Shown: one piece after another, positions 23,972 to 50,343 of the stretch
How positions within the stretch are numbered: the stretch's first letter is position 1
Layout: the number at the start of each line of letters is the position of its first letter
Assembly (NCBI GenBank): GCA_963844715.1
Contig: CAWJPJ010000007.1
Location: forward strand, 384,001-448,000
From: an uncultured Phycisphaerales bacterium
GTDB lineage: Bacteria > Planctomycetota > Phycisphaerae > Tepidisphaerales > Tepidisphaeraceae
Direction of reading: 5' to 3'
Length of the DNA stretch: 64,000 bases
The notes under the pieces: model-generated
Database searches by the model: none
Told to the model about the DNA's origin: nothing
What the model saw: only the letters and a program-made list of their open reading frames with translations
Position numbers and translations under genes: made by a program

Positions 23972-24085
23972 CGTTGAGGGGAAAAGGAGTGGGGATGGGA
24001 GGGTGCGGGAGGGATTCCGGCAGTTTCCGCAGGATGGGCCTTTTATGGTTCGCCCCTTCCCTCCCGCTTTGCATTCGCCTTTGAA
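23972..24085 (-). repeat. ~115 bp dispersed element containing motif copy C (24015-24037)
   Basis: Reverse complement aligns with 43745-43856 along its whole length. Confidence 0.85.
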
Positions 24086-24196
24086 TTTCATTTTGCCAAC
24101 AGGGAACTGCTGCCAAGAAAGCGCTGGGCGCTCAGATGTGTCCCCGGAGCAAGGACTGAGTTGGGCTGTTGGACTATTGATGAAGCGCGTCTTGGA

Positions 24197-25334
24197 TTAT
24201 CCTTTGACTACGACCAAGCTCTTCCCCTCCACGAGCAGATCAAACAAAACCGAAATATCTGCCGCGCGTAGTCGAATGCATCCCATGCTCGATTGTTTCC
24301 CAATGCTGTCCGGATCGATCGTCCCGTGGATTCCATACGAAAGTTTCCCCACCGCCTGTCCTTCCGTCCCCGTAATTCCGATCCAATACCCGCCCAGTGG
24401 ATTCTTCGGATCATCCGCCGCGATCACACCCTCCCCGCGCGGGCTGTAATAGGTCGGATGCTTCAGCTTCCTATGCGGCTCCACCATCCACGTCCCCGTC
24501 GGAGTGCTATCATCCTGCCCCAATCCCACCGGGAACGTCATCACGTACATCGAACTCTTTTCCCCAGGCAGCGCCCCAAGATAAACGTCCAGCGTGAATT
24601 TGCTCTTGTCCACCACCGCGAAGAACGGCCCCTGCGCAACTTTAATCGTCGCCCCCGCGCAGATGCCGCGGATCGATCCCATTGATCCTCCCGAGCAGTT
24701 CCCACGTCGTATCGCAATCCGCCGCGATCTTCGCCAGGCTGTCCCCCGGCTTGACCACATACACTCCGCCGTACGGATCATCCGGAAATCGCTGCTTGCT
24801 GAACACCAGTGTCTGGTTGATCTGCGTCAATTGCTGTTTCACACTTGCCGCGTCCGCCTCGCTGAGCTGTCCCCCTTGCAGCGCATCGTTAAGCTGCTCG
24901 CGGGCCGTCAAAAGATCCCCCGCATCCAGCTTCGCCCTGGCCTGTAAGATTAAATCCCCACTCGGAACCGTCGTCGGTCCCAGCGTCATTTCCGCCGCCG
25001 CAATCGCCGGCGTTGTGTCGACCGCCGTATCCTTCGCCGGCTGCGTTGCCGCCGGCGCATCCGCCCCCGCCGCGTTCACCATCGGCGTGTCCACGCTCTG
25101 CCCCGCCACGGCCACGGGAAGCATCGCCTCATCCGCCGCGGGCCCCTGCGCCTGCGCCGTCGAATCAGGCTCCGTCGCCGCCGGCGTCACCAAAGGCGCC
25201 GCCGTCTGCGCGGCAATCGGCTGCGGCGCGGCCGCATGGCGAACCTTGTACCCAAAGGACAAAATCCCCAGTGAAACCGATACAACCAATATAAGAATTA
25301 AAACCCGGCTGGTGCGGCGATCCGTGCGACTCAC
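24197..25334 (-). CDS. LysM + YkuD L,D-transpeptidase, membrane anchored (frameshift near 24650)
   Basis: YVVKPGDSL.KIA..INGI; FPVGLG..TPTG; YGIHGT..IG..SSMGCIRL; GGAGG before GTG 25334. Confidence 0.92.
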
Positions 25335-25378
25335 GAGAACCTCCATGTTCTCAAAGTGCTTTGCTTTCGGAGCGGAAT

Positions 25379-25978
25379 TCAGTGCTGCGTCATGCAGTTC
25401 GTCGCGAAGCGGCGAATTCCGCGATCCGTGCACAGCATACTCAGAGCCATGTCATGGTCAAGCACCGGCAGCGACGGAATCATCTGTTCTTCAAACCCGT
25501 ATCCGCAAGAAACCCCCAGAAAATCCGCCTGCGCCAAAAACCGGTCGTAGAACCCCATCCCGCGCCCGATGCGATGCCCCGTCGGCGTGAACCCCAATCC
25601 CGGCACGATCACCAGATCGATCAGATTCAGCGGAATCGGCTGCCCGCTCACCGGCTCCCGAACCCCCGGCCCGCTCGTCGTCATGCTCGTCTGCAAACTC
25701 GTGATCTCCACCGGCAGCATCCGCTTCTGGTCCCACGATACCTTCGGAACCACCACCGTCTTCCCGCTCTGCCAACACCGCAGCGCCAGCGGCGTCGTAT
25801 CGATCTCAAACGGACTGTTCAGATACAGCATCACTACCCGCGCCGCCGCGAACTCCGGCGACGACGCCATCAGCGAACACGCGCTTAGGCTCTTCGCCTG
25901 TCGGTCCGCATCGCTCATCGCCTCCAATACCTGGCGAAATTGGCGGCGAATTTGTGATTTATCGTTTGCCTGCTCCAT
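25379..25978 (-). CDS. 5-formyltetrahydrofolate cyclo-ligase
   Basis: K..IR; EIDT; REP; IDLVIVPGLGF..RIGRGMGFYDR. Confidence 0.94.
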   Translation of the reverse strand: MEQANDKSQIRRQFRQVLEAMSDADRQAKSLSACSLMASSPEFAAARVVMLYLNSPFEIDTTPLALRCWQSGKTVVVPKVSWDQKRMLPVEITSLQTSMTTSGPGVREPVSGQPIPLNLIDLVIVPGLGFTPTGHRIGRGMGFYDRFLAQADFLGVSCGYGFEEQMIPSLPVLDHDMALSMLCTDRGIRRFATNCMTQH

Positions 25979-26020
25979 CGACTTTATGTAACTCCGCATA
26001 CAACATATCGGCTCAAGCCC

Positions 26021-27412
26021 TTACGGCTCTTGGGCCGCAGGCGGCTTCCGCCCGCGGACTTCTCCAGTCTCGCCCGATGTCCCCTGACTCGACTGCCTTT
26101 TCTGCTCCTCCAGCCGACGCTTGACCTCGCCCTCATACCCCCGATCCGTAGGATCATAGTATATTTTATCGACCCCAAGGTAGTCCTGCGGCACAAATCC
26201 GCCGGAAAATTCATGCGGGTACTGATACCCCTCCCCATGCCCAAGTCGTTTTGCCCCTTGATAATGCGAATCCCGCAGCACTTTCGGCACCGGCACCGTC
26301 CTCCCCTCCGCCACGTCCTTCGAAGCTGCCCAGATTGCCTTCGCCGACGCGTTCGATTTCGGCGCCGTCGCCATATAAATCACCGCCTGCGATAGCGTCA
26401 GTTGCGCCTCCGGCATCCCGATCTTCTCCACAATATCAAACGCCGCCGCCGCCACCTGGATCGCCCGCGGATCGGCGTTACCGATGTCCTCCGACGCCAA
26501 GATCGCCACCCGCCGCGCGATGAACCGCGGGTCCTCCCCCGCCTCCAGCATCCGCGCCAGCCAATACACCGCCGCATCCGGATCCCCGCCCCGCATGCTC
26601 TTGATCAGCGCGCTGGCCGCGTCGTAATGCTCATCCCCCGTCCCGTCATAAACAATCGCCTTGCGCTGAATCGACTGTTCCGCCACATCCAGATCGATCT
26701 TGATCGCCTTCTTTGAATCCTTGCGTTCCTCCATCTGAGAAAGCACCGCCACCTCCAGCGCCGAAAGCGCCCGCCGCGCATCCCCATCCGATTTCGTAGC
26801 CCACAAATCGACCGCCTCATCTGAAATCTCAAATTTCAAATCCCCATACCCCCGCTCCTTATCCCCAATCGCCCGCCGCACCAAAGATCGAATCTCCTCC
26901 TCACTCAGCGCACTAAACTGAAAAATCTGGCTCCGGCTGATCAGCGGCGAATTCACCGAGAAAAACGGATTCTCCGTCGTCGCCCCGACGAGCAGGATGT
27001 ATCCCGCCTCCACGTCTTCCAGCAAAATATCCTGCTGGGCCCGATTGAACCGGTGAATTTCATCCAGAAACAAAACCGTCCGGCCCCCTCCCGCCGCCAG
27101 CCGTTCCTTCGCCCCTTCCAATATCCCCCGCACTTCCTTCACGCCCACCCCCGCCGCGTTCAAAGGCACAAACTCGCTCTTCGTATACCGCGCAATGAGT
27201 TGCGCCAAGGTCGTCTTCCCCGTCCCCGGCGGCCCATAAAAAATCACGCTGGTCAGCCGATCCGCCTCCAGCATCCGCCGCAATAATTTCCCCTCTCCCA
27301 AAAAATGCCCCTGCCCCACAAACTCCTCGAGCGACCGAGGCCGCATCCGCACCGCCAACGGCGCCACCCGAGCCAAATTCCTCTCCCGAGACTCGGCGAA
27401 CAAATCAGGCAT
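26021..27412 (-). CDS. rarA: Replication-associated recombination protein A
   Basis: PLAVRMRP; GPPGTGKTT; DEIHRFN; GATTENP; HYDAASALIKSMRG; ASEDIG; PKSN; YQYPH. Confidence 0.96.
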   Translation of the reverse strand: MPDLFAESRERNLARVAPLAVRMRPRSLEEFVGQGHFLGEGKLLRRMLEADRLTSVIFYGPPGTGKTTLAQLIARYTKSEFVPLNAAGVGVKEVRGILEGAKERLAAGGGRTVLFLDEIHRFNRAQQDILLEDVEAGYILLVGATTENPFFSVNSPLISRSQIFQFSALSEEEIRSLVRRAIGDKERGYGDLKFEISDEAVDLWATKSDGDARRALSALEVAVLSQMEERKDSKKAIKIDLDVAEQSIQRKAIVYDGTGDEHYDAASALIKSMRGGDPDAAVYWLARMLEAGEDPRFIARRVAILASEDIGNADPRAIQVAAAAFDIVEKIGMPEAQLTLSQAVIYMATAPKSNASAKAIWAASKDVAEGRTVPVPKVLRDSHYQGAKRLGHGEGYQYPHEFSGGFVPQDYLGVDKIYYDPTDRGYEGEVKRRLEEQKRQSSQGTSGETGEVRGRKPPAAQEP

Positions 27413-27477
27413 CTATGAAATGATAGGTGAAGAATGCCGAATGATGAATTGAAAACTTCAGCAATAACGCGTGTAGA

Positions 27478-27699
27478 TCAAGCCGCCATCGGCTCAAATC
27501 TCAGCCGAAAGATTTGCGATGCCGAAAGAGTCGCCAGCCCGTACGTTTGGCCGTTGTTGTCGACAAACTCAACCTCAAAATCGGTGGGCGTGTAGACATG
27601 CACGACCGTGCCAACCTGCCCGCGCAGCAGATTCTCCGACGGAATATCCTCCGTCAGCGCCACCACATCGAGTTCCCGGATAGGCTCATCCATCGACAT
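27478..27699 (-). CDS. DUF4926-like small protein
   Basis: ELDVVALTED..L.RGQVGTVV..FEVEF.D..G.TY. Confidence 0.85.
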   Translation of the reverse strand: MSMDEPIRELDVVALTEDIPSENLLRGQVGTVVHVYTPTDFEVEFVDNNGQTYGLATLSASQIFRLRFEPMAA

Positions 27700-27703
27700 T
27701 CGA

Positions 27704-28036
27704 TTATAGCGGATAGCACGTCACCAATCGAGGAAATTGCTCGTCATTCAGGACAATCCAGATGCTTAGAACCCGTTTCACACCACTGGGGCCGCTCATT
27801 CCAAATTCCACCCGATACAGTTGCCCAAATCTATTCCTTTTGGTCGCGGTCGCTTCTTCGTTTCGAGCCGCTTTCAAAAGCGCTTCGCGTAGCTCCGCGA
27901 TCTGATTCGCCCCTATTCCCAGTGACGCGGAAAAAATCCGAGCTTTGTGCCGTCCGCGCGAATGCGACTGCGATAAACAATACTGCTCGAGTTTCTTTAC
28001 GTCGACTATGGCTCGATCACCATTGGGAAGTTTCAT
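27704..28036 (-). CDS. DUF6883-like protein
   Basis: MKLPN..A.VD..KL..YCL..H.RG.HKA..F..LG; W....PRLVTCY. Confidence 0.8.
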   Translation of the reverse strand: MKLPNGDRAIVDVKKLEQYCLSQSHSRGRHKARIFSASLGIGANQIAELREALLKAARNEEATATKRNRFGQLYRVEFGMSGPSGVKRVLSIWIVLNDEQFPRLVTCYPL

Positions 28037-28052
28037 CTGCTCTCGAGGGAAT

Positions 28053-29267
28053 TTACCATCGTTTCGCCTGCTGCGCCACCTTCATAGGCAGCCCAAACAA
28101 ATCGATAAACCCGCGCGCCGCCGTTACGTCGTATCCCTCCATGCTGAAGCTCGCCAGTTGCGGATCGTACAAGCTGAACGGGCTCGTCACGCCCGCCGCC
28201 GTCGCCCGCCCCTTGAACAGCTTCACCTTCACCTGCCCCGTCACCGAAATCTGCGTATGGTCCACGAACGCCTGCATCGCCTCCCGCAGCGGATGGAACC
28301 ACTGCCCGTAATAGACCAGTTCCGCATACCGCAGCGCCACCTGCTGCTTAAAATGAAACGTATCCCGCTCGATGCATATCTGCTCCAGCGCCTTATGCGC
28401 TTCATACAAAATCGTCCCGCCCGGCGTCTCATACGCCCCGCGCGATTTCATCCCCACCAGCCGATTCTCCGCCAGTTGCGTCTGCCCCACCCCATGCTTC
28501 CCTCCCATCTCATTCAGCGCCGCGATCAACTCATGCCCGGCCATTTTCTTCCCATTCACCGCCACCGGGTTCCCCTTCTCAAAATCCACCGTCACATACT
28601 CCGGCTCGTTCGGCGCCTTGCTCACCGGCACGGAAATCATCCACAATTCGTCCTTGGGCTCATTCCCCGGCGACTCCAAATCCGCTCCCTCATGGCTGAT
28701 ATGCCACAAATTCCGGTCCCGGCTGTAAATCTTCTTCTTGCTCTGCTCCACCGGCACCCCCTTCTTGTTCGCATAATCAATCGCGCTCTCCCGATCCCGC
28801 AACCCAAACGCCGGGTCCTTCCACGGCGCAATGATCTTGAGCTCCGGCGCCAAAGACATATACGTCAGCTCGAACCGCACCTGATCGTTCCCCTTCGATG
28901 TCGCCCCATGTCCCACCGCATCCGCCCCCGTCGCCCGCGCCACTTCCACCTGATGCTTCGCAATAATCGGCCGAGCGATGCTCGTCCCCAGCAAATAATC
29001 ATTCTCATAAACCGCATGCGCCCGCAGCATCGGAAAGCAGAATTCCTCCGCGAATTCCTTCCGCAGATCCTTAATGACCACTTCATCCGCCCCGCTCTTG
29101 CGAGCCTTCTCCTCGATCCCCTTGAGTTCCTCCCCCTGCCCCAGCTCCGCCGCGAACGCGACGAGTTTGACGCCCGGATACCGATCCTTCAGCCAGGGCA
29201 AAATCACGCTGGTATCCAGCCCGCCGCTATAGGCAAGCACAATCTTTTTAGGTGTATTCGATGACAT
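28053..29267 (-). CDS. argG: Argininosuccinate synthase
   Basis: VLAYSGGLDTS; YLLGTSIARP; GNDQVRFE; ENRLVGMKSRG.YETPG. Confidence 0.97.
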   Translation of the reverse strand: MSSNTPKKIVLAYSGGLDTSVILPWLKDRYPGVKLVAFAAELGQGEELKGIEEKARKSGADEVVIKDLRKEFAEEFCFPMLRAHAVYENDYLLGTSIARPIIAKHQVEVARATGADAVGHGATSKGNDQVRFELTYMSLAPELKIIAPWKDPAFGLRDRESAIDYANKKGVPVEQSKKKIYSRDRNLWHISHEGADLESPGNEPKDELWMISVPVSKAPNEPEYVTVDFEKGNPVAVNGKKMAGHELIAALNEMGGKHGVGQTQLAENRLVGMKSRGAYETPGGTILYEAHKALEQICIERDTFHFKQQVALRYAELVYYGQWFHPLREAMQAFVDHTQISVTGQVKVKLFKGRATAAGVTSPFSLYDPQLASFSMEGYDVTAARGFIDLFGLPMKVAQQAKRW

Positions 29268-29294
29268 AAGAGGATCAGTATATGCAATGCCCCG

Positions 29295-30155
29295 TCAGAC
29301 GTCATGAAGAGGCGGTTTGTATGTCGCCCAGATGCTCTTCCCCGCCAGATATTCCTCCCTGAGCACCGCCGCAAATCGTTCCAAAAACGCCACCGCCCAT
29401 ATCTCGAAGAGCAACTCGCACACCCATAGGCGCACCTCCCATCGAAACAGCGCAATATTCACAGGCATGATTCTGGTCAGTTGGCGCAACATCTCCAAGC
29501 CAGCATTGGCCAGCAAACAAAACCCCAATCCATACGCGATCCAATTTGCTCGCCGGAACTGGTCAATATCTCGCGTCCGCGCCGCCTGCCGCGCTACGGT
29601 TCGAAAAATCGCCACATACAAAACCGCTGTCAGCAAATCCCCCACAAGCCCGTCCGCGTAAATCGCCCCCTGCGCCAACCGCACCGCCACCGCGATCCGC
29701 ACAGAAAGCCACTGCACTCCGAGCAGCCCCACCAGCGCCCGCAACCCCGTCCGGTCCGATCCGGGCTCCGGCGTCGCCAGCAGCCACGCCCCGCCCAGAA
29801 AAATCAAAAACCCCGCCCAGTTCGCCAGCATCTCCCGGTCCAACGGCAGCCGAGGAATCTGGAACATCCAAAGCAACGGTCCAAACATGATAAAAATCAC
29901 AAGCCCCGCGATGAGCACCCACGCTCCTATCCAAAGTCTTCGCACCCACTGCGGATGCGAATACCTCAGTCGATCGCTCCCCATCGAAAGTGCCACCGCC
30001 GTCCCGCACTCCGGACAAACCCCGCCCGACCCGAGCGTCTTCAAGTTATACCCACATCCCCGGCAAGCCAGATCCCCCTCCACCGTCTCCGCCAAAGGCA
30101 ACTCCGGAAGCGGAACCCCCGCCCCCCAAAATGAAGACCCACCACGCTCATTCAT
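29295..30155 (-). CDS. Zn-ribbon multi-pass membrane protein
   Basis: CRGCGYNL..L....CPECG followed by about 6 TM helices. Confidence 0.8.
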   Translation of the reverse strand: MNERGGSSFWGAGVPLPELPLAETVEGDLACRGCGYNLKTLGSGGVCPECGTAVALSMGSDRLRYSHPQWVRRLWIGAWVLIAGLVIFIMFGPLLWMFQIPRLPLDREMLANWAGFLIFLGGAWLLATPEPGSDRTGLRALVGLLGVQWLSVRIAVAVRLAQGAIYADGLVGDLLTAVLYVAIFRTVARQAARTRDIDQFRRANWIAYGLGFCLLANAGLEMLRQLTRIMPVNIALFRWEVRLWVCELLFEIWAVAFLERFAAVLREEYLAGKSIWATYKPPLHDV

Positions 30156-30189
30156 AATGACACGCCCCCATTATACGGCTACACCCTCC

Positions 30190-30290
30190 CCGTCCTGAGC
30201 GCAGTCGAAGGGCCCCGTCCCTTCACTTCGTCTCTTCGTCTCTTCCCCCCGGTATTCCCTGCCAACTAACAACTCGCAACTGGCAACTAA
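30190..30290. repeat. Cluster of short intergenic repeats
   Basis: GTCCTGAGCGCAGTCGAAGG half-site; CTTCGTCT octamers; CAACTAA-CAACTCG-CAACTGG-CAACTAA heptamers. Confidence 0.7.
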
Positions 30291-30370
30291 ACGCATTCCA
30301 TTTGGAATCTTCACACTCCCGTCGTACCATGCGTCCCATCCACTGAATGGTCGGCTGCTTGCACGGACGC

Positions 30371-31868
30371 ATGCGAACCAAGTCTGAAATCCAATTCGAT
30401 CTCCCGGGCCCCCGCGGATTCCTTGATCGCGCAGCGCCGCCTCTACGCCCAATTCGTTCACGACCCCATAAAATTCCTTGCCGAAACCTACGAAAATCAC
30501 GGCCCCCTCTCCGGCATGACCGTCGACGACAAACGCATCGCCTTCGCTATCGGACCCGATCTCAACCGACAGATCCTCTCCAACCCCGACCTGTTCTATT
30601 CCTTCGGCTTGACCGTCCCCGGCCCCGCGGCCAGCTCCCAATGGCGCATGGGCTACGGCCTCTTCCGGCAGGATTCCCACACCGGCTCACTCCGAAGAAA
30701 AATGCTCTCGCCCATGCTCAGCCGAACTTCCGTGGAATCCCATCTCCCCGAACTCAGCCGCATTATTCAGGAAATGCTGGCGACGTGGCGCCCCGGCCAA
30801 ACAATCGAAATCACCAACCAGATGCGCGACCTGTCCCTCTCCGCCGCCTGCCGGGTCCTCTTCGGTCTCAACCCCGAAGGCCGCTGGCGAAACATCGGCA
30901 AACCCATCGAACGCTGGATGCGCACCAACTCTTCCATCGGCGCCCGCCTCGCTGACCCCGGCCAACCCACCGCCGGATTCAATCGCATGCTCAAAGACGC
31001 CGGTCGCCTCGAGGAGCACGTCAAGGAACTCCTCGCCACCGCCGGCGGCCGCTCCAACCTCCTCTCCGCTCTCCTCCGAGCCCACGGCCGCGACCACGAC
31101 ACCCTTGACCGCGACGAACTCCTCGGGCAAACCTCCGTCCTTCTTGCCGCCGCCTACGAAACCACCGCCATGGCCCTCACCTGGACCCTTTTCCTGCTCG
31201 CCCAGCACCCCAAAGTCGCCGCCGATGTCTTGAGTGAAATCAATCGCGAATCCCGCGGCGAAATCCCTACCGCACCCGAACTCAACCGGCTGGACCTGCT
31301 GGACCGCGTTATCAAGGAAAGTCTCCGCCTCTTTCCCCCGGCTTGTTTCGGCACCCGCGTGGTCACGTCCCCCACGACTCTCCTGCGCCGCCCCATCCCC
31401 AAGGGCACGATCCTTTTCTTCAGCCACTACATGACCCACCGCCTGCCGGAAATTTATCGCGAGCCGATGCGATTCTTGCCCGACCGCTGGAAGGAACCCG
31501 ACCCGTCCCCGTATGCGTATCTCCCCTTTGGCGCCGGCCCGCGAAAGTGCATCGGCGCCACGTACAGCAAATTCGTCATCAAACTGGCGGTCGCCATGAT
31601 CTTCAAAAAGTACCGCCTCACGGTCCAGCCGGATTCAGTTATCAACCGCTCGATAAAAATCATCCTCTTCCCCAAACGCGGCATCCCGATGCAAATTCAC
31701 CCGCAGGACAATCAGTTCCGCACCACCCCGATCACGGGCAACATCCGGGAAATGATCGAGTTTCCCCCCACGGGGGATCCGGGACAAAGCGGGTCGCGCG
31801 GGTCAGTGACCGTGCACACGCTTGGCGCGCGATGGATCGGTGGATGGGAAATTCAACACAGCAACTGA
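30371..31868 (+). CDS. Cytochrome P450 (frameshift near 30425)
   Basis: LPGPRG N-terminus; I-helix AAYETT; KESLR (ExxR); PDRW; FGAGPRKCIG. Confidence 0.95.
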
Positions 31869-32078
31869 ATCTCCAAGCTGTTGGTTTGGAGGGCTCGGAG
31901 GGAAAAAGAAAATTCGAATTCCAAAAAAGGGGGGGTAATTATTTTCCGTGGGAATTTCGATTCGAACTGATATTGGGGTTATTTTTCTCGCAAGGTGTTG
32001 GGTGGGCTGGGGTTGGGGTGTTTGTTTTATGTTGATCAAACAGTTGCGAGTTGGCCGTCGCGGCGGCCCTTCGGCTAG

Positions 32079-32964
32079 GGCCTGTCTGATGAATCGCTTT
32101 TGGTTATAAATAGCGGTTTTCAGACGAGGTGTCACGGATGCGACGTTATGAGCTCACGGATGAGCAGTACGAGTTGATCGGCGATCTGCTGCCCGGCAAC
32201 GGCAAGCGCGGCGGGCAGTGGAACGACCACCGCACCACGCTCAACGGCATGTTCTGGATTCTGCACTCGGGCGCTCAATGGCGCGAGATGCCCGAACGTT
32301 ACGGCAGATGGCAAAGCGTCTACGACCGCTTCAACCGCTGGAGAAAGGACGGAACGATTGATCGAATCCTCCAGCGGCTGCAGATGAGGTTGGACAAGCA
32401 AGGACGAATCGACTGGGACCTGTGGTGCATCGACGGCACCAATGTGCGAGCCAGTCGATCCGCCGCCGGAGCCAGAAAATCAAAACCGCCCCGGAAGAAC
32501 CGGCGGATCACGCGTTGGGCCGCAGCCGAGGCGGGTGGGGCAGCAAGCTCCACCTGGTTACTGACGGCCAGGGAGTTCCGCTCGCCGTCGAGGCCAGCGC
32601 CGGCCAATGCCACGAGAGCCGGTACGTGGAGCCGGTGATGAACGCGATGCGCATTCGGTCGCCGCCGTCGTCGCCCCAGGAGGCTGGCGGGCGACAAGGG
32701 ATACAGTTACGGAAATGTGCGGCGATGGCTGCGTCGCCACCGAATCCAAGCGGTGATCCCGGCGAAATCGAATCAGCCGCCGCAGGAGAACTTTGATCGC
32801 AAGGCGTATCGCCGACGGAACGTGGTGGAGCGTTGCGTGAATTGGATGAAGGAGAATCGCCGCCTGGGCACGCGTTACGAGAAACTGGCGGTGAACTTTC
32901 AGGCCATGGCCAAGCTCGCCATGATCCGTCGCTATTTCAGGATTTTGGATTCATCAGACAGGCC
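32079..32964 (+). mobile_element. IS5-family insertion sequence (IS427-like group), 886 bp
   Basis: Perfect 17-bp TIRs GGCCTGTCTGATGAATC (32079-32095) / GATTCATCAGACAGGCC (32948-32964); CTAG on both sides (32075-78, 32965-68). Confidence 0.95.
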
Positions 32965-32968
32965 CTAG
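32138..32968 (+). CDS. IS5-family DDE transposase, split near 32475 (probably programmed) and near 32660
   Basis: YELTDEQ..G..WILHSGAQWR.MP.RYG.W; IDGT; LGRSRGG.GSKLH; GDKGY; YRRRNVVER..RYEK; stop codon falls in the target CTAG. Confidence 0.93.
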
Positions 32969-33945: not shown

Positions 33946-34977
33946 GTGAAGGGCGAAGTGATTAAACTCGCCGCTCCCGCTAAGGCCCAAAAATATGAAG
34001 AAGGATCACCCGCCTCAGATTTCTCCGACTTCGTTCCTGCGGAAGTCGCCGACCTAAAGGATTCTCAACGGGACATTCCCCGGATAGCCCGCGATCCGAA
34101 ATTAACGGCTCTGATCGAATCAGCGGTTCAGAAGATACCCACCCGCCACTCTCTTTACCGCCGCGATGCGCGCGATTTACGCGACTTCGCCGCGGAAAGC
34201 GTTCACCTGGTTCTAACGTCGCCTCCCTATTGGACTCTGAAGGAATACCGGGATGCCAGCGGGCAATTGGGCCATATCGTCGACTACGAAGAATTTCTTT
34301 CCCAGCTCGACAAGGTCTGGCGGGAATGCCATCGCCTGCTCGTTCCCGGCGGGCGCCTCATCTGCGTGGTCGGCGACGTCTGCCTATCGCGGCGAAAAAA
34401 CGGCGGCCGCCACACCGTCGTCCCTCTCCACGCGTCGATTCAAGAACGCTGCCAGTCGATCGGCTTCGATAATCTCGCCCCGATCATCTGGCACAAGATC
34501 GCCAACGCCGCCTTCGAAGTCGAAGGCAACGGCGGCGGCTTCCTCGGAAAGCCCTACGAACCAAACTCGGTCATCAAAAACGACGTGGAATTCATCCTCA
34601 TGCAACGCAAGCCGGGCGGCTATCGCACCCCCTCCATTCCGGAAAGGGTCCTCAGCGTCATCTCCGCCGAAAACCACAAAAAATGGTTCCAGCAAATCTG
34701 GTCCGGCCTCACCGGAGCCTCAACACGATCCCACCCGGCCCCGTTCCCGCTGGAACTAGCCGAACGTCTGGTACGAATGTTCAGTTTCGTCGGCGATACC
34801 GTCCTCGACCCTTTCATGGGCACCGGAACCACGAATCTCGCGGCTGCTAAATGGGGGAGAAACAGTATTGGCGTGGAAGTCGACTCACATTACTTCAGCC
34901 TCGCCGAGCAGCGAATAAACTCCGGTAGCTCGGATCTTTTTCGTGCCGCGTCCGTAACGGCTCATCACAGCGAATGA
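33946..34977 (+). CDS. Beta-class amino DNA methyltransferase (SPPY, likely m4C); start uncertain
   Basis: VLTSPPYW precedes HPAPFP and VLDPFMGTGTT. Confidence 0.93.
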   Translation: MKGEVIKLAAPAKAQKYEEGSPASDFSDFVPAEVADLKDSQRDIPRIARDPKLTALIESAVQKIPTRHSLYRRDARDLRDFAAESVHLVLTSPPYWTLKEYRDASGQLGHIVDYEEFLSQLDKVWRECHRLLVPGGRLICVVGDVCLSRRKNGGRHTVVPLHASIQERCQSIGFDNLAPIIWHKIANAAFEVEGNGGGFLGKPYEPNSVIKNDVEFILMQRKPGGYRTPSIPERVLSVISAENHKKWFQQIWSGLTGASTRSHPAPFPLELAERLVRMFSFVGDTVLDPFMGTGTTNLAAAKWGRNSIGVEVDSHYFSLAEQRINSGSSDLFRAASVTAHHSE

Positions 34978-34981
34978 CCCA

Positions 34982-35755
34982 ATGAAACTCGACCCGCAGC
35001 TACGCAAAGCCGTCAAGCAGTTCTGGCTAACCCGCGAATCCCAGTCACAGAAGCAAGGCGCCGCGACCGGCCAGCGCGACGCCGGTGCTCGCACCGCCGT
35101 CACCGGCGGCAAGCAGATGAACGGGTTCGTCAATCTAGTTCGAGATATGCTCGTTGCGGGCGGCATCCCCAAGCCTTCCGTCTACTGCGAGAAAAGCGTC
35201 GAGCTTCCGGGATTCTTTCGACCCGAAAAATGTTGGGATCTGCTGGTCGTCGTCGAAGGAAGCCTGATCGCATCGATAGAATTCAAATCCCAAATCGGTC
35301 CCTCGTTCGGCAACAATTACAACAACCGGACCGAGGAGGCCCTGGGCAACGCCACCGACATCTGGGCGGCCTTCCGTGAAGGCGCGTTCAAGCCCTCCGC
35401 CCGCCCCTGGCTCGGCTATCTCATGCTGCTGGAGGAAACTGAAAAGTCCACCGCGCCCGTTCGCCCGCGCGAACCGCATTTCAAGGTCTTCCCCGAGTTC
35501 AGGGATGCCTCTTATGCCAAGCGGTACGAAATTCTGCTCATGAAGTTATTGCGAGAGCGACTCTACGATGGAACTTGCTTTCTTCTCTCGGACCGAATCT
35601 CTGGCCTCCGTGGCGGCTACCGCGAACCCAATCCCGAATTGAGTTTTAGAAAATTCGCCGAAGGATTGCTGGCTCGTGCGGTAGCACATGTGCGTACGTC
35701 GGCGCTCAATCCTGCCGCCCTGAAGAAGGTTAAGGCTAGATCAAGCAAACGATAA
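34982..35755 (+). CDS. PaeR7I/XhoI-family type II restriction endonuclease
   Basis: VTGGKQMNGF; LPGFFRP.K.WDL; EFKSQIGPSFGNNYNNRTEEALG; PWLGYLMLLE. Confidence 0.9.
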   Translation: MKLDPQLRKAVKQFWLTRESQSQKQGAATGQRDAGARTAVTGGKQMNGFVNLVRDMLVAGGIPKPSVYCEKSVELPGFFRPEKCWDLLVVVEGSLIASIEFKSQIGPSFGNNYNNRTEEALGNATDIWAAFREGAFKPSARPWLGYLMLLEETEKSTAPVRPREPHFKVFPEFRDASYAKRYEILLMKLLRERLYDGTCFLLSDRISGLRGGYREPNPELSFRKFAEGLLARAVAHVRTSALNPAALKKVKARSSKR

Positions 35756-35854
35756 CCCGCTCCCACGCCAGCCGATGATGGTGTCTGGGACCATTCATGC
35801 ACCGGGCTGCCAACTAAAACAGAGGAGGCGAGCGGGCTCGCATTTTGGAGCTTT

Positions 35855-37054
35855 TCACACCTCGAGCATGAGGCGGCCGGGGTCTTCCAGGTATTGCTTG
35901 ATCCTTACGAGGAAACTTACGGATTCCCTCCCATCGACCAGGCGGTGGTCGTAGCTGAGGGCTACATACATCATGTGGCGGATTTCGATCTTGTCGGCGA
36001 CGACCATGGGGCGTTTTTGGATGGTGTGCATTCCCAAGATTCCGGACTGCGGGGGGTTCAGGATCGGCGTCGAGAGGAGCGAGCCGAATACTCCTCCATT
36101 GGTGATCGTGAAGGTTCCGCCGGCGAGTTCGTGCAGGGCTAGTTTTCCTTCGCGGACGGCGCCTGCGACGCGTTTGATCTCTGATTCGAATCTTGCGAAG
36201 GACATTTGATCGGCATCCTTCAGCACGGGGACCGCCAAGCCCCGCTCCGTGCTGACGGCTATGCCTAGGTTCACGTACTGGTGATAGATCACCTCATCGC
36301 CGTCGATGAAGGCGTTCAATCTTGGGAATTCTTTAAGTGCCAGGACGGTGGCGCGTGCGAAGAAGGACATGAAGCCTAGGCCGACGCCGTAGAGTTCCTG
36401 GAAGCGTTCTTTGTAGCGGTTGCGGAGATCGACGATGGTTGTGAGGTCGATTTCATTGAAGGTGGTGAGGATGGCGGCCGTGTGCTGGGCCTGGACGAGG
36501 GTTTGGGCGATTCGCTTGCGGATTTTGCTCATCCCCACGCGAGCGACGCCGGAGTTGTCGAATTGGATCGGCGAGCTGTCTGCCGCCGGCGCGGATGACG
36601 GCGCAGCCGCCGGCGCGACGGAGGAACTGGGCGGCCCGGCGGGGATCTCCCTCTTTTTCGCCGCCGGTGCGGCAGGCGATGATCTTTCCGGCGGTTTTTC
36701 CGCAGACTTTTCCGCGGGGGGCGGCGCAGTCTTTTTCGCCGACGGAGGCGCCGATACCGGCGCCGATGTCTGCGCTGCCGGGGCGGATTTCGCTGGGGCC
36801 GCTGGTTTCGTTGCCGCGGCCGCGCCATCGATTTGCGCGATGGCTTCGCCGACGTTTACGGTGTCGCCCTCTTTTTTCAATCGGCGGAGAGTTCCTGCTA
36901 AGGGGGACGGGATGTCGACGTTGGCTTTGTCGGTTTCCAATTCGCAAATGGGCTCGTCGATTTGGACGGCGTCGCCGTCGGATTTGTGCCATTTCAGGAG
37001 TTTGGCTTCCTTGATGGATTCGCCTAGTTCGGGGACGGGAACGGGAGTGGGCAT
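35855..37054 (-). CDS. sucB: Dihydrolipoamide succinyltransferase E2
   Basis: [15 protein letters not shown] lipoyl domain; [23 protein letters not shown]. Confidence 0.96.
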
Positions 37055-37133
37055 TGTTATCTCGCTGCGCGAAGTAAAACGCGCCGCACTGGTGCGGGCG
37101 CTAAATGTTCAATGGGGGTATTGTAGGGAATGA

Positions 37134-39966
37134 TCAGTCGCCGCCCAAGCCGGAACCGGGGGCGATTTTTGCGAGTTCCGGATTCGCGGGTTGCGGGGCG
37201 GCGGCGGGTTTGGGCTCGGGGGCGGGGAGTTCGAGGGCGCGGACGAGGATTTCGGCTTCCTCGGCGTCGCTGACTTTCTTGGAGCCAACCGATGGGCTGG
37301 CGGCTTCGTCGCGGCCGGCGTAGATCAATACGGCGGTCTCGGAAAGCATTGGATCGAGCCGATCGGACATGAACGTCCAGGCGCCGCGATTTCGCGGCTC
37401 TTCCTGCACCCAGCAGATTTCGTGGGCATTGCGGTATTTGGCCAGGATGCCCTGAATTTCCTTTTGCGGGTAGGGGTAAAGCTGCTCGACGCGGACGAGG
37501 GCGACGTCTTCGAGGCCGACGCGTTTTCGAGCGGCTTCGAGGGCGAAATAAATCTTTCCGGAGCAGAAGAGGATGCGGCGGACGCGCTCGCGGTTGGGAT
37601 TGTTGGGGTCGTCGATGAGGACCTGAAAGGAGCCGTCGGTGAAATCGGTCAGCGGGGAGATGGCGTCGCGCAAGTTGGCCTTGGGCATCATCAGAACCAG
37701 GGGCTTGCGGAAGTTCCGCTTCATCTGGCGGCGCAGAACGTGGAAATATTGCGCCGGGGTGCTGGGATACACGACCTGGATGTTGTTCTCGGCACAGGAG
37801 GCGAGGAAGCGGTCGAGATACGCATAGGAGTGTTCGGGCCCGGAGCCTTCGTAGCCGTTGGGGAGGAGCATGACCAGGCCGGACATTTTTTGCCACTTGG
37901 ATTCGGCGGCGACGATGAACTGGTCGATGATCGGCTGGGCTTCGTTCACAAAATCGCCGAATTGTGCTTCCCAAACGACGAGGTTTCTGGGGTCGGCGGA
38001 AGAGAAGCCGTATTCGAAGCCGAGGACGGCCAGTTCGGAGAGCATGGTGTTGACGAAAATGATCGGGGCCTGATCGGGGGAGATATTGGCCAGGGGCGTA
38101 TATTTTTCGCCGTTGTTGTAATCGCGGAGCGCGGCGTGACGATGGGAGAAGGTGCCGCGTTGGGTGTCTTGTCCGACGAAACGGACGGGGGTTCCATCCA
38201 GGACGAGGGAGCCGAGGGCGAGCATTTCGGCGCAGCCCCAATCGACGGGGGTTTTGCCGGTGGCCATGTCGAGTCGGCGGGCCAGCAGGGCCTTGAGTTT
38301 GGGATGGATCGTGAAGGTATCGGGGACGCGGGTGGCGCCTTCGCCGACGGTCTTAAGGATATCCGCGGAGACGGCTGTCTGGGCGGACCAATCGGAGCCG
38401 GCGCGGGAAATTCCTTTCCAGATGCCGCCGAAGGTTCCTCCGGCGGCGCGGCTTGGTTTCGCGGGCTTTGGCGAGGGCTTTGTCGAGGCGCTGGCGGGAC
38501 TCCGCCTTCATTACCTCATATTCTTCGGAAGTGAGGCTGCCTTGCTCGATAAGTCGTTTGGCATAGAGATCGCGGACGGAAGTTTTGGCCGCGATTTCGC
38601 GGGCCATGACCGGCTGGGTGAAGCTGGGTTCGTCCTGCTCGTTGTGGCCATTTTTTCGATAGCACCAGAGGTCGATCATCACGTCGCAGTGAAATTCCTG
38701 ACGGAAGGCGATGGCGAGTCGCCCGGCGTGGAGGCAGGCCTCGGGGTCGTCGCCGTTCACGTGGAAGATGGGGGCCTGGATCATTTTCGCGACGTCGGTG
38801 GGGTAAGACGTAAAGCGGCCCTGGCGCGGGAGGGTCGTGAAACCGATTTGATTGTTGACGATGACGTGGACGGTGCCGCCGGTGCGGTAGTAGGGGAGTT
38901 CGGAGAGGGCCAAGGTCTCGGGGACGATTCCCTGTCCGCAGAAGGCGGCGTCGCCGTGCAGGAGAATGGGGACGACGCGGGTGCGGGTGGCGTGGTCGCC
39001 GAGATAGTTTTGCTTGGCGCGGACGATGCCTACGACGACGGGGTCGACGAGTTCGAGGTGGCTGGGATTGTAGCTGAGGGCGATATGGATTTTCTTGCCC
39101 TCGCGCAGGGCGCGATCCTGGGCGTAGCCCAGGTGATATTTGACGTCGCCGTCGCCCTCGTTGGCGACCAGGGAGATTCCCTCGAATTCGCTGAGGATGA
39201 CTTCGTACGGTTTGTTGAGGACGTGCGCCAGGACGTTGAGTCGCCCGCGATGGGCCATGCCCATGACGACTTCCTGGATGCCGAGGTTTGCGCCGTCGTT
39301 GACCAGGGTATTGAGGAGCGGGATGAGTGATTCGCCGCCTTCGAGGCCGAAGCGTTTTTGGCCCTGGTGCTTGACGGCGAGGAAATCCTCGAAGCCCTGA
39401 GCGGCGACGAGTTCGTAAAGGAGGGCCTTTCGCTCCGCAGGTGTGAGGGCGGGGCGGTTGAGATTGGGCTCCATACGCTGGAGGAGCCAATCGCGCTGGG
39501 TTTTGTCGGAGATATTGGTGAACTCGACGCCGATGGTGCTGCAATAGGTGGTGCGCAGCTTGGCGAGAAGATCGCGAAGGGTTCCGTCGAACGGGCCGAG
39601 GAAATCGCTGTGGGTGACGCGTTTGTCCAGATCGGAGAGCCCGAGGCCGAACTGGCTGAGTTCGAGGAGCGGATGGGTGTCGCGGTTGTGGCCGAGGGGG
39701 TCGAGCTGGGCGATGAAGTGGCCTAGCTCGCGATAAGAATGGACCAGGTTTTTGACTTCAACGCCGGCTTTGGCGTCATGGGGTTGCGGGGATTCCTTGT
39801 CGCTGAAGGCGCCGGTAAGGGAGACGGCTTTGCCGCCGGCTGCTTCGAAACCGGCGAAGAAGGCTCGCCAGTAGGAGTCGACGGAGTCGGCGTCGGCCTG
39901 ATACTGCTGGTAGAGTTGGTCGATGTAGTCGGCGTTTGCCCGGTTGACGAAGTCCAGCGATTCCAT
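37134..39966 (-). CDS. sucA: 2-oxoglutarate dehydrogenase E1 (frameshifts at about 38350-38450)
   Basis: KRFGLEG; GMAHRGRLN; GDVKYHLG; HGDAAF.GQG; GHNE.DEP; GQDTQRGTFSHRH; WEAQFGDF. Confidence 0.96.
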
Positions 39967-39993
39967 GGTAGAGATGAACCTTAGCGACGCACC

Positions 39994-39999
39994 ATTATA
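39994..39999 (-). promoter_or_regulatory. Putative -10 box of sucA
   Basis: TATAAT 27 nt upstream of the ATG; no clear -35. Confidence 0.5.
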
Positions 40000-40358
40000 G
40001 GCTGCAAGTCATCCGTGACCTGCTTTAAGCCGGCGCGGGAGCGAGGAAGATACTATACCTTAACTCGCGGGCAAATGTGTGTCATTGCCCAAAGCGCCGG
40101 TGATCGAACCGACGATCCGGCCTATAGTTACATCGTCCTTTGCAGCCCGCACCCTGAAACAATGCGCAGGCGTTTTTGCAGTAGACACGGCGGACCCCGT
40201 GGACGATGGGAGCGGGAATAAAAACTATATAAGTCATTATTTTATGTGAGGTTATGTGACTGCAAGGTTTAGCTTGGGTCGCTTCGGGCATGGTTTGGGG
40301 GTATTTTCTCTCAGAGAGCGGCGCGTACAATCGGTTTTAGACGATATTCGAACGGCTT

Positions 40359-40898
40359 ATGGCATCTGACTTGATGTATTGTCCTGACTGCGGCGGGCTG
40401 ATCGGTGCGACGGAGACGACCGATGAGGGGCGGCCGTGCACATGTTTTAAGACTTACGCCTCGGCGTCGCCGCCTTCAGACGGGGGAGCGGACACATCGG
40501 TTATGGGGCAGCAGGTGGTCGCCAAGGCGAAGGTATGCTGCAAGTGCGGGAAGGACCTTTCGGGCAAAAAGCGGTTGCGGGACAGCCTGGGATACTGGTG
40601 CGTGGAGTGCCATCGGGCGGACGAGGCGGCCAACGCGCCCAAAGGGGTGAAATGCGCGGAGTGCGGACGAGTCGTGGCGGAGGGGGCGATCACCAATTAC
40701 GACGGGATCAAGATTTGCGGGCGATGTCTTGAAGATCGAAAGGAACAGGCGAAGCGCGACCGGAAGTTCGGCAAGGTGGACGACCGGTCGTTTAAGGAGC
40801 ACGAAAAGCAGCGGCTCTATTTGTTTCTGGGGATATTGGGAGTTTTGTTCCTAATAATTGTGCTACGAGCGTTGCATTTGCTGGGCAATATGTTTTGA
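40359..40898 (+). CDS. Multi-CxxC Zn-finger protein with C-terminal TM anchor
   Basis: CPDC, CTC, CCKC, CVEC, CAEC, CGRC; hydrophobic C-terminus. Confidence 0.8.
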   Translation: MASDLMYCPDCGGLIGATETTDEGRPCTCFKTYASASPPSDGGADTSVMGQQVVAKAKVCCKCGKDLSGKKRLRDSLGYWCVECHRADEAANAPKGVKCAECGRVVAEGAITNYDGIKICGRCLEDRKEQAKRDRKFGKVDDRSFKEHEKQRLYLFLGILGVLFLIIVLRALHLLGNMF

Positions 40899-40914
40899 AT
40901 AGCCGCTCAAGCGA

Positions 40915-41340
40915 ATGCCGCAACTGCTCTTCAAACGGAAATACTTTGAAGCGATTCGACGGGGTCGCAAGATGACGACGTTGCGCCGTTGGAAATCGTG
41001 CAAGGTTCATGCGGGGGGTTCCGCGACGACGCCGGGGCTTGGGGTTCTGAAGATTCTCGATTGCCAAAGGGTGAAGCTCCGGAATCTAAAGGATGATGAC
41101 GCGAAGGCGGATGGGTTTGAATCGCTGTCGGACCTGCGGCAGACGTTGAAGCGGCTGTATCCGAACCTGAAGAAGGACGGGAAACAGTGGTACAAGATTT
41201 CGTTCGAGCTGGTATCGGAGGCGGGGTCGAAAGAGAACGGGGAATGGGGGCTGCGGGGTCAAAAAGCGCGATTGGCGAAGCGGGTTCGGGCCGAGCTTGA
41301 CAAGGCGGTGCGACGCAACGGATCATTGCTCGCTCTATGA
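40915..41340 (+). CDS. ASCH-domain protein
   Basis: LLFK..Y.EAI..GRK.TTLR; DAKADGF..L..L...Y. Confidence 0.85.
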   Translation: MPQLLFKRKYFEAIRRGRKMTTLRRWKSCKVHAGGSATTPGLGVLKILDCQRVKLRNLKDDDAKADGFESLSDLRQTLKRLYPNLKKDGKQWYKISFELVSEAGSKENGEWGLRGQKARLAKRVRAELDKAVRRNGSLLAL

Positions 41341-42130
41341 GCAGTGCGGTCGTTTTGCAGCACGTTCCTTATGCCGGTCCGGGGCGAATTACGCCGATTT
41401 TCAGGGATTTTGGGATACCAGTGGAGATTCGCCGGCTCTATCAGGGGGATGAGGTTCCAACTGATCTGGAAGCGATTCGAATCCTGATCATTCTCGGCGG
41501 GCCGATGGGCGTGGCGGACGTGGGGGATTCGAAATATCCGTTTTTATCGCAGGAAGTGGAGTTGCTGAAGCGGATGATTCATGTGGATCGGCCAGTGCTG
41601 GGGATTGCACTGGGCGCTCAGCTGCTGGCGCATGCGGGGGGGCGAAGGTTTGTCCGCTGACGCGGCCGGGGGCGAAGCCGGAGGATCCGCCGGTGCCGGC
41701 GCCGGAATTGGGATGGGGCCCGGTGACGTTTCCATTTCCGGGCGGGACGGAGCCGATTGTGCTGGGGATGATGGACGGGGCGCCGATGTTTCACTGGCAT
41801 TTTGACGCCTTTGATTTGCCGAAGCTTCCACCGCCGCCGGGCGCGCCGCCCAATGCTGCGACGGGGAGCGCGCTGTTGAGTTCGAGCCGGGCGTGCAAGA
41901 ACCAGGCGTTTCGGTTCAAGAACCGGTTGTTCGGATTTTTATATCACATCGAATGCACGCAGCCGGAGATCGAAGGGATCGTCGGGGCGGGTCGGCAGGA
42001 GGCGGCGAAGTGGTTGGGGCCGGATGGGGATACGAAGATTCGGCAGGAGACCGGGAAAGTGTACTCGCGCTACGATCGATTGTGCGCTCGCCTGCTGGGG
42101 AATGTGGTGCAATTTTTGAAGGTTTATTGA
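41337..42130 (+). CDS. Class I glutamine amidotransferase-like protein (frameshift near 41640)
   Basis: LQH; LGGPMGV; PVLGIALGAQLLA; ELGW; FHWH.D.FDLP; NQAFR; YHIE. Confidence 0.85.
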
Positions 42131-42178
42131 TTTCTGCGCGGGGAACCGCGAAGGTCCCGATGCTGGGGCCATTAGGTT

Positions 42179-43657
42179 TTGAAACCGCTTCTGGCTCAGA
42201 TTCGCCGCCGCAAGAAGCCGTTCGTGCGGCCGTGGGCGCTGGCGACACCGATCGCGGTGCTGCTGGTTTGTTTGCCGCTGCTGAGGCCGCTTCGGCATCC
42301 GGGGCAGGTGAGCACGGACGAGGAGCTTCGGCTGGCGACGATCTCGGCGCTGGTTGAGCATCGTTCCTGGAATGCTCCGCTGGCGGACCGGCTGGCGATC
42401 GACGAGCGGCTTTTTTCCGCCGATTCACATCTGATCAGCGTCAAAGGGAAGGTATATAGCGATCAGCCGCCGATGCTGGCGTTTTTGCTGAGCGGGCCAT
42501 ACCGAATTCTCAGGGCGTTTGGGTATCAATTGCGGGACTATTCGGTGCTGGTGCCGTATCTGCTGACGCTGATCGGCTCGACGCTTCCGGCGGCGGCGGC
42601 GGGGGGATTGGTGTATCGGCTGGCGCGGACGTTTGAGCTGAATCGCCCGCTCAGGGCGGCGCTGGCGGCAGCGGTGGTGTTTGGGTCGGGCCTGGTGAGC
42701 TATGCGGTGGTGCTGAATCCGAACGTTCCGGCGGCGGCGCTGGTGCTGGGTTCGATGGGATGCCTGATTCATCTGGCGGCCAGTCCGGACCCGAAGCGCG
42801 GCGGGTGGTGGATCGTGATCTCAGGATTTTGCGCGGCGCTGGCGGCGACGATCGATCCGTGGGCGACGGTTTATCTGCTGATGCTTTTGATCGTGATTCC
42901 GGCGATGCGCGTGCCGCTGCCGATGCGGTTTGGCGGGCTGGTTCTGTATTTGCTCGGGGCGGCGCCGCCGATTTTGCTGCATGCGGTGCTGACGGTTCCG
43001 GTGACGGGAAATTTGCTGCCGGGGTATATGCATCCGGAGCTGGCGGCGACGCCGCGCGGAGTTGATGCGGGGGATATTTCGGGCGACGACGACAACGGCG
43101 CGGATATCGTGGACGATGAGGATTCGGGAGTCTGGTCGAGCTTTTGGCGCGGGACGGGGAGGCTGACGACGGCGCTGTTCGGCGCGCATGGTCTTCTCGT
43201 GCATTTTCCGGCGGTGATTCTGGGGTTCGGGGGCATGCTGGCGGTGATGCATCGGCATTGGCCGACGACGACGAAGCTTCTGGCGGGGGTGAGCGCGGTG
43301 GCGCTGGTGGTGGCGGTGTTCGCGTGCGCGGCTGGAGGTGGAGACGGGGGATCGGCGGCGGGATTCGCGAATCGGAGTTTGCTGGTGTTCAGTCCGATTT
43401 TATTTTTCTGGACGGGGGCGTGGCTGAGACGGGCGCATCGTCCGGGGGTGTGGTGGATCGCGGGAGTTTTGCTGGCGTTTAGCGTGATCGTTTCGCTGAT
43501 CGGGGCGACGGATCCGCTGCCGCGCGGGGGGTATGATCGGTATACGGTGGCGGGGGCGCTGCATCATTTGCTTTATCCGAGAACATCAGTGGCTCCGCCG
43601 GCAGTTGGGCTAGGGGGATCGATGATGGGGAATTTCGGAACTTTGTCTTCGTACTAG
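42179..43657 (+). CDS. Polytopic membrane protein, possibly a GT-C glycosyltransferase
   Basis: DE motif after TM1; YSDQPP; more than 10 TM segments. Confidence 0.6.
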   Translation: MKPLLAQIRRRKKPFVRPWALATPIAVLLVCLPLLRPLRHPGQVSTDEELRLATISALVEHRSWNAPLADRLAIDERLFSADSHLISVKGKVYSDQPPMLAFLLSGPYRILRAFGYQLRDYSVLVPYLLTLIGSTLPAAAAGGLVYRLARTFELNRPLRAALAAAVVFGSGLVSYAVVLNPNVPAAALVLGSMGCLIHLAASPDPKRGGWWIVISGFCAALAATIDPWATVYLLMLLIVIPAMRVPLPMRFGGLVLYLLGAAPPILLHAVLTVPVTGNLLPGYMHPELAATPRGVDAGDISGDDDNGADIVDDEDSGVWSSFWRGTGRLTTALFGAHGLLVHFPAVILGFGGMLAVMHRHWPTTTKLLAGVSAVALVVAVFACAAGGGDGGSAAGFANRSLLVFSPILFFWTGAWLRRAHRPGVWWIAGVLLAFSVIVSLIGATDPLPRGGYDRYTVAGALHHLLYPRTSVAPPAVGLGGSMMGNFGTLSSY

Positions 43658-43744
43658 TCCTTATTGCGATTGTTCCGATTGCCTTTTTCATTTTCGGATG
43701 GCCGCGATTGACTGTGGTTCGGCCGCGGATTGGGTAATTTCTTT

Positions 43745-43856
43745 TAAGACAAATGCAATGCAGGGGAGGCGGGAGAAAAACCATAGGGCCCATCCTGCGG
43801 AAACTATCGGAATCCTCCCCCGCACCCCCTCCACCCTCTTTTCCTTCCCCTCAACC
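43745..43856 (+). repeat. ~115 bp dispersed element containing motif copy D (43790-43812)
   Basis: Aligns with the reverse complement of 23972-24085. Confidence 0.85.
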
Positions 43857-47943: not shown

Positions 47944-47946
47944 GCC

Positions 47947-50320: not shown

Positions 50321-50343
50321 AGCGGGGAGCGAAGGGCTGAGCC

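Follow-up and report, generated by a model that had tools for sequence, protein, structure and literature searches.

Two copies of a repeat of ~105 nt, both carrying the same 22-nt motif, lie in a 64,000-nt stretch of DNA from an uncultured Phycisphaerales bacterium (the window; contig CAWJPJ010000007.1, positions 384,001 to 448,000). Our analysis indicates that the repeat is probably a dispersed non-coding DNA element, predicted to fold as a single-stranded purine-motif triplex on its G-rich strand, and that the 22-nt motif is a separate guest module. An iterated profile search of the genome holding the window (G000, 4.55 Mb; C4, C6, C7 and C8 below are contigs of it), run to convergence, recovered 19 full-length copies (E 4e-24 to 6e-14). 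All 19 were intergenic by the boundaries of a home-made gene caller, which was applied to G000 and its relatives alike, and they occurred in both orientations beside unrelated housekeeping genes. Ten bore the motif, and the other nine had a continuous 15-18-bp stem in its place. Because the motif was absent from these nine copies and present in other repeat families, we regard it as a guest and the ~105-nt repeat as one of its hosts; this overturns the original prediction, made from the two window copies, in which the motif was the element's own loop.

Of 140 further family genomes searched with an intact copy, 19 gave matches, and the loci around them supplied a sample of 111 copies from 19 genomes, with at most six candidates scored per genome. 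One degenerate pattern gave no match to the repeat in viral contigs. Wherever two copies stood close together they were inverted tail-to-tail (30 of 30 pairs, 49-203 bp apart) and, judged by eye, usually belonged to two different subtypes. At three G000 sites, including both window sites, the repeat was missing from 5 of 5 relatives, whose flanks had diverged too far to align for a target duplication; other sites were common to several relatives. The host repeat has thus moved but is also inherited, because some of its sites are empty in relatives and others are shared.

Selection on structure, which had been proposed for the two window copies, was borne out by the stem across 70 intact copies. 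Two-sided changes occurred at 11 of 12 consensus pairs (0 of 500 shuffles), and 96.5% of the pairing cells were paired compared to 82.0% after shuffling, with slid controls much lower. RNAalifold run on a MAFFT alignment recovered only 12 pairs because the lengths of the G runs vary. An inner pair within the loop was Watson-Crick in 46 of 47 copies, with three pair types represented.

The tail that follows the stem belongs to the structure too, though the earlier outline of the element overlooked it. It mirrors the 3' arm around a GCA turn and tracks the stem of its own copy. In G000 the cognate arm-tail score was 12.06 of 14, compared to 9.73 +/- 0.37 when tails were permuted (0 of 20000), and a mirror fitted the tail better than a direct repeat did (12.2 vs 8.1). 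Across genomes, 41 distinct arms (71 copies) scored 11.8 of 13 with their cognate tails and 9.65 +/- 0.17 with permuted ones (0 of 20000); a strict G-C/A-T rule gave 10.32 vs 8.78 for the same arms (0 of 20000). Such matching is hard to explain without selection on the fold.

We then asked of the 71 cleanly parsed copies which strand the matching rules describe. Read from arm to tail on the C-rich strand, G was answered by C at 640 of 679 positions, A by T (110) or A (47) at 168 positions, and C by A at 64 of 73. The same positions on the G-rich strand read as G.GC (640/679), as A.AT or T.AT (157/168) and as T opposite a CG inversion (64/73). According to the sections of Holder et al. 2015 used here (PMC4666352), the purine-motif triads are A.AT, T.AT and G.GC, a triplex of this motif cannot form in RNA, and pyrimidine-motif triplexes can; according to those of PMC6158708, neutral pH permits antiparallel triplexes, and at CG inversions the natural-base option is T, depending on context. 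The 47 A-to-A positions correspond to no canonical pyrimidine-motif triad, and the stem mismatches on the C-rich strand (A.C 74, G.T 6) become wobbles if read on the G-rich strand. The triad rules therefore likely describe a purine-motif DNA triplex of class I on the G-rich strand, modelled as a 5' third strand, a turn of 3-4 nt, the purine strand, a loop of ~20 nt and the pyrimidine strand. As in other intrastrand triplexes, three consecutive blocks combine a Watson-Crick stem with a (reverse) Hoogsteen-compatible strand; the ITxF loop limit is 1-6 nt, which the turn respects and the partly paired hairpin loop of ~20 nt exceeds. The third strand of the 41 arm variants obeys reverse-Hoogsteen rules, including T at CG inversions, and so provides phylogenetic evidence for a DNA triplex.

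The closest known repeats are BoxC/PIT/TM-ECO, intrastrand triplex repeats described by Holder et al. 2015 and, as cited there, Hoyne et al. 2000. BoxC/TM folds as a triplex in vitro; its origin, mobilising agent and in vivo fold are left open in the sections of PMC4666352 drawn on. Both families are intergenic G/C-rich series of three blocks (stem, stem, mirror strand) with purine-motif triads including T.AT, and both show no strand bias and form inverted pairs of two subtypes (TM type A/B pairs, PMC4666352 in the same sections). They differ in order: the host repeat runs 5' third strand, purine, pyrimidine, which is class I in Holder's scheme as given there, whereas BoxC/TM is class II. The host repeat also has 13-17 triads compared to 9 in BoxC/TM, a structured loop of ~20 nt, T at CG inversions, conserved ends on both sides, a narrow lineage range and an upper stem often overwritten by the module. 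The strict TM-ECO consensus had no match in G000, and its 80 relaxed matches were intact TM-like repeats, that is, the other family. TM repeats flanked DUF559 genes at 3 of 3 loci in G000 and stood beside the gene at 9 of 10 loci in relatives (L011-L013, L280-L288), whereas no DUF559 neighbour was found for the host repeat; its third strands point inward in its pairs, as in the TM pairs around DUF559 genes. An independent scan of G000 returned 139 class II and 20 class I triplex-like sites, the latter comprising nine copies of this repeat, eight by-products of TM pairs and three short class I relatives; block-shuffled C7 gave one class I match compared to six in real C7. The three short elements lie at C7:895140-895200, C7:883560-883620 and C8:6890-6990, and one agrees with the main repeat at its junction and outer end while two resemble a flipped TM.

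The original prediction had allowed for either a non-coding RNA (ncRNA) or a single-stranded DNA hairpin, and it is the second branch that gained support. Under the RNA reading, the C-rich strand would give a multicopy structured or self-cleaving RNA that forms a pyrimidine-motif triplex and has the 22-nt motif as its core. Such an RNA would accord with the strong stem covariation, with the intergenic position of every G000 copy and with the capacity of RNA for that triplex motif (PMC4666352, as above). It would require many protonated C residues, however, and it is at odds with the 47 A-to-A and the 64 C-to-A positions; the wobbles favour the opposite strand, the copies occur in both orientations beside unrelated genes, and the supposed core is missing from most copies in relatives as well as from nine in G000. 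Rfam gave no match at gathering scores for the whole window and nothing real by E-value for 23300-24200. Hammerhead, HDV-like (hepatitis delta virus) and other ribozyme readings were dropped after comparison with consensus features. An RNA role is thus unlikely, and this form of it very improbable.

We next examined the module itself. With up to two mismatches allowed, the 22-nt motif occurred at 85 G000 sites, 72 of them outside predicted genes, and at none in the reversed genome used as a control; a loose 13-nt regular expression was uninformative (94 matches vs 70 in the control). In the 10 filled copies of the host repeat, the 22 nt take the place of ~16 nt that would otherwise complete the loop at its 3' end and form the upper 3' arm, and each filled copy retains its own lower arm and tail. 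Most of the other module sites lie in BoxC/TM-like repeats, where again one block is replaced (42 anchored motif-bearing sites), and in a third repeat family, which bears the motif in G001 too. The module is a mini-hairpin in which a 3-bp stem closes the triloop GCA, as read on the G-rich strand; in DNA, GNA triloops are highly stable. Its mini-stem covaries (TCC/GGA, TCG/CGA, GCC/GGC): of 75 TM-context sites, 37 had C-G as the inner pair and 34 had G-C, and the outer pair was G-C in relatives, except for one mismatched variant with two occurrences. A weak variant with two mismatches sits in an intergenic hairpin of the window at 518-539 on the minus strand (C7:384539), and at C4:77888-78260 a tandem array of TM-like units carries a second subtype of the module in each unit.

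The same repeat position was occupied by a homologous module in four relatives (G019, G143, G152, G153) and at 6 of 24 loci from JGI metagenomes, and in genus g18 a near-identical variant occurred inside the host repeat once or twice per genome, at different loci. A GTDB scan for the motif placed 23 of 87 loci in TM context; three Phycisphaerales records, which possibly overlap our set of relatives, account for 22 of these, and the remaining loci were apparent chance matches in genes. A module variant was absent from 121 genomes of the phylum, and the G000 motif pattern matched in 1 of 60 relatives, probably by chance. When the module was cut out and a tree of the copies was built, module-bearing copies did not form one clade (7 changes, at least 3 forced, approximately unbiased test p-AU 4e-46), indicating that the module was gained several independent times or spread by conversion.

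The two window copies (Table 1) are both of the filled form. Their places and strands were confirmed when the positions were re-read in the sequence, and so were the displacement of the A-T pair and, in copy 2, the A.C mismatch of the stem. What had been taken for the complete short stem is paired as described but is only the lower 6-8 bp, a remnant of the 15-18-bp stem, and the conserved loop, though its sequence is indeed shared, is a composite of native loop and acquired module. The arm type of copy 1 is fully paired in the intact copies C8:569698 and C8:692601. In a repeat search of the window the two copies appeared as inverted-repeat pairs I1 (75 nt, 72%) and I16, and a two-sequence alignment had a mean column identity of 75%. 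Folded by itself as RNA, each copy was no more stable than its shuffled versions, whichever strand was used (z -0.45 to -1.51).

Table 1 Features of the two repeat copies and of related repeats in the window
Feature	Position	Strand	Remark
Copy 1, whole repeat, module-bearing form	23971..24075	-	C-rich strand as first read; predicted fold on the G-rich (+) strand
Copy 1, 5' purine arm, 17 nt	24049..24065	-	Upper half without Watson-Crick partner
Copy 1, 22-nt module	24014..24035	-	3-bp mini-stem, TGC/GCA loop; in place of loop 3' end and upper 3' arm
Copy 1, leftover lower 3' arm and GCA junction	24004..24013	-	
Copy 1, mirror tail	23987..24003	-	Predicted third strand; matches copy 1's own arm
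Copy 2, whole repeat, module-bearing form	43751..43860	+	Arm subtype other than that of copy 1
Copy 2, 5' purine arm	43763..43779	+	
Copy 2, 22-nt module	43792..43813	+	
Copy 2, leftover lower 3' arm and GCA junction	43814..43824	+	
Copy 2, mirror tail	43826..43842	+	Triad rule with own arm obeyed at 17/17 positions
Copy 2, conserved end motif	43843..43860	+	Inward-facing in inverted pairs
Same 22-nt module in unrelated repeat family D	20435..20456	+	C7:404435; similar repeat with module in relative G001
Inverted pair of BoxC/TM-type class II repeats without module (other host family)	3460..3568	.	Repeat pair I5

Could the motif be a long-read base-calling or assembly artefact at hairpins that are hard to read? 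All multi-copy carriers of the exact motif in the GTDB scan were highly contiguous assemblies, as such an error would predict, and the sequencing run behind a public contig that spans copy 2 (X1) is possibly the source sample, its library type not being on record. That contig covers 43450-43851, including copy 2 and its module, with one letter different; read coverage of X1 ended by 43860, and two small-share runs (X5, X9) lacked this locus. Fragmented assemblies (G019, G143) and the JGI loci nevertheless have modules with compensatory changes at this place in the repeat, the motif is present in a relative assembled in 280 contigs (G001), and carriers are limited to one lineage though TM repeats are widespread. 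Because homologous modules recur in relatives and JGI loci and a public contig spans copy 2, an artefact is unlikely, indeed extremely improbable.

How the repeat and the module spread can be framed as follows. The repeat is most likely a DNA element that is non-autonomous and that a small structure-specific nuclease acting in trans would recognise by its single-stranded triplex fold, such that only copies with all three strands matched would be propagated. Inverted pairs would then be gene-less cassettes, spread or maintained in trans on the model put forward for REP/RAYT and SRM/Ssn pairs. Hairpin modules of other nuclease systems may find hot spots in the exposed loop and the central strand; the 22-nt module would be the recognition hairpin of such a nuclease, written into single-stranded loops by cut-and-repair or short-patch conversion, and its writing would cut the triplex down to 6-8 triads. 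Nuclease-driven writing of the module into repeats is a tentative proposal, with the balance somewhat against it. Its extension to two-tier selfish DNA is unlikely: here the class I triplex repeat would be the recognition structure of a putative single-strand nuclease, and mini-hairpins of 20-25 nt belonging to other tiny nucleases would need no real homology to be written into triplex repeats, tRNA fragments or other hairpins, either in the loop or over the central purine strand.

An account that departs from this mechanism in its last step only retains the repeat as described and lets the module spread passively, by ordinary gene conversion or as whole filled copies, with no dedicated enzyme. 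Filled and empty copies do have common short flanks that conversion could use, and the g18 variant, given its sparse and shifting loci, resembles a propagating filled subfamily. The module is joined to TM repeats and to family D, however, with only 2-3 nt of identity at the junction, and the retention of its own lower arm and tail by each filled copy also speaks against passive spread, which we consider quite improbable.

Some sister modules stand beside nuclease genes. Other short palindromes occupied the same loop or arm of the repeat in relatives. At 4 loci a second module took the place of the arm segment that the 22-nt module replaces; it flanked small GIY-YIG genes too, at 3 of 17 loci, where the anticodon arm was replaced in the flanking tRNA fragments; another, found by eye in loops at L206, L209, L290 and L300, matched hairpins at 4 of the 17. 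A variant of the 22-nt module lies near a small GIY-YIG gene on C6, again by eye. The regular expression for the TTCGAC-type module overlooked copies that were visible by eye. In Chenal et al. 2025 (PMC11893778), Ssn proteins are single-domain GIY-YIG nucleases of single-stranded DNA with NTS/SRM hairpins. As there, small hairpins flank tiny GIY-YIG genes and are dispersed in the genome, which two sister modules do in this lineage; the GIY-YIG genes here differ in sitting at tRNA ends and in lacking an assignment to cd10448, the family of SRM/Ssn genes; NCBIfam gave no family for them. What is shown for Ssn is cutting, not the writing of hairpins into other repeats. Tandem genes of ~70 aa encoding GIY-YIG proteins were also seen, each behind a 3' fragment of tRNA-Pro (or tRNA-Asn) whose anticodon arm has given way to a short palindrome (L020/L021 at C6:558800-559750, L310-L318, L265, L270; 9 of 141 family genomes with one query).

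Repetitive extragenic palindromes (REP) and their composites (BIME, REPIN) offer a further comparison. The portions of Di Nocera et al. 2013 used here (PMC3733652) describe GTAG/CGTC palindromes, heterodimers 20-100 bp apart and REPs inside other palindromes. The host repeat likewise consists of dispersed palindromes in close heterodimeric pairs, but at ~105 nt it is longer than a REP (20-40 bp with a terminal tag), has a covarying third strand and lacks a tag adjacent to the stem; a CGTC does occur ~35 nt 3' of the stem on the C-rich strand. Unlike REPs within palindromes, the module replaces sequence rather than only inserting. Five loci of RAYT-like Y1 transposases in G000 (L014-L018) had short palindromic flanks of their own; none was flanked by the host repeat, the nearest copy being 1.9 kb away.

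Bacterial miniature inverted-repeat transposable elements (MITEs) include RUP and Correia. MITEs are defined in the introductions of PMC4666352 and PMC3733652, the parts consulted for this purpose; the host repeat resembles them in being short, non-coding, multicopy and present or absent at orthologous sites. It is unlike them in that no transposase link was found and the single unit has no terminal inverted repeats, as had been noted at the outset: the ends of a unit are dissimilar, and inverted ends bound pairs only. Neighbour genes were assigned with Pfam at 1e-5 in G000 and with NCBIfam at 1e-12 in relatives. Among 109 G000 neighbours (66 of repeat sites, 43 of module sites) there was no mobility gene bar scattered cases, namely scattered DDE transposases, one integrase two genes off and one Y1 transposase 1.9 kb off, and among 118 neighbours in relatives there was none; a linked HUH, IS110 or reverse transcriptase gene, which the original prediction proposed to look for, was not found. 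Tagged REP, MITE, known RNA and BoxC/TM proper were set aside as identities for the repeat on consensus or class, tag, terminal inverted repeats or Rfam match.

Several results weigh against a triplex element served by nucleases. No nuclease gene lay next to or between repeat copies among the 66 neighbours in G000 or 118 in relatives, where small GIY-YIG genes could escape the search, since the NCBIfam library gave no family for them. Neither an end-motif search of 141 genomes nor 15 follow-up loci yielded an inverted pair bearing a gene. The 22-nt module was near a small GIY-YIG gene at only 2 of 17 loci, apparently one locus twice, and a repeat-gene-repeat layout at the 17 loci was seen for the two sister modules but for neither the host repeat nor the 22-nt module. 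When the arm-tail test was limited to one module-bearing copy per arm type (n=5), covariation was not significant (1620 of 20000), and the A.C excess is mostly one inherited position. The triad count left out 40 of the 111 copies (module-bearing, with other inserts, bulged or truncated), and related copies inflate all permutation and covariation results. In vivo dimethyl sulfate (DMS) probing in E. coli did not detect the triplex for TM, according to the sections of PMC4666352 used here.

Finally, 10 of the 19 copies have a canonical G-quadruplex motif on the G-rich strand. The hairpin and G-tracts could then act as a quadruplex/hairpin, or as H-DNA in supercoiled duplex, with the mirror symmetry serving H-DNA or arising as a by-product. 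A mirror repeat is a signature of H-DNA too, and quadruplex competition is noted in the consulted parts of PMC4666352 and PMC6158708. The canonical motif is missing from the other nine copies, however, a quadruplex has no need for the A and C-interruption positions of the tail to track the stem (64/73), and nuclear magnetic resonance (NMR) data on the related TM motif ruled out a quadruplex there (PMC4666352, same sections); we judge this alternative improbable.

If true, the two-tier system would be a natural structure-targeted reaction for writing short sequences and one of the smallest mobile units known, and a small nuclease that writes its module into unrelated hairpins would explain the origin of mosaic palindromic repeats. 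Matched intact and overwritten copies within one genome, such as intact C7:475167 and its overwritten sister C8:545834, are ready test substrates. Our literature search found no description of such a class I family, of a TM-DUF559 link or of modules overwriting triplex repeats, though supplements (the ITxF tables of PMC4666352) may list such class I motifs.

Elsewhere in the window, a single-copy non-coding block at 23670-23830 (+), ending in a hairpin and T run, is 82-92% identical in 5 of 5 relatives and has no Rfam match; it may represent an attenuator leader or an ncRNA not yet described. Another dispersed palindromic repeat of 37 nt (pair I4, 92% complementary) lies at 1591-1627 and 32042-32078. 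TPR-rich genes at 47935-52548 form a tandem duplication with a period of ~2.4 kb, in which stretches of 100% identity grade to 71%, and this may reflect recent duplication, conversion or an assembly effect.

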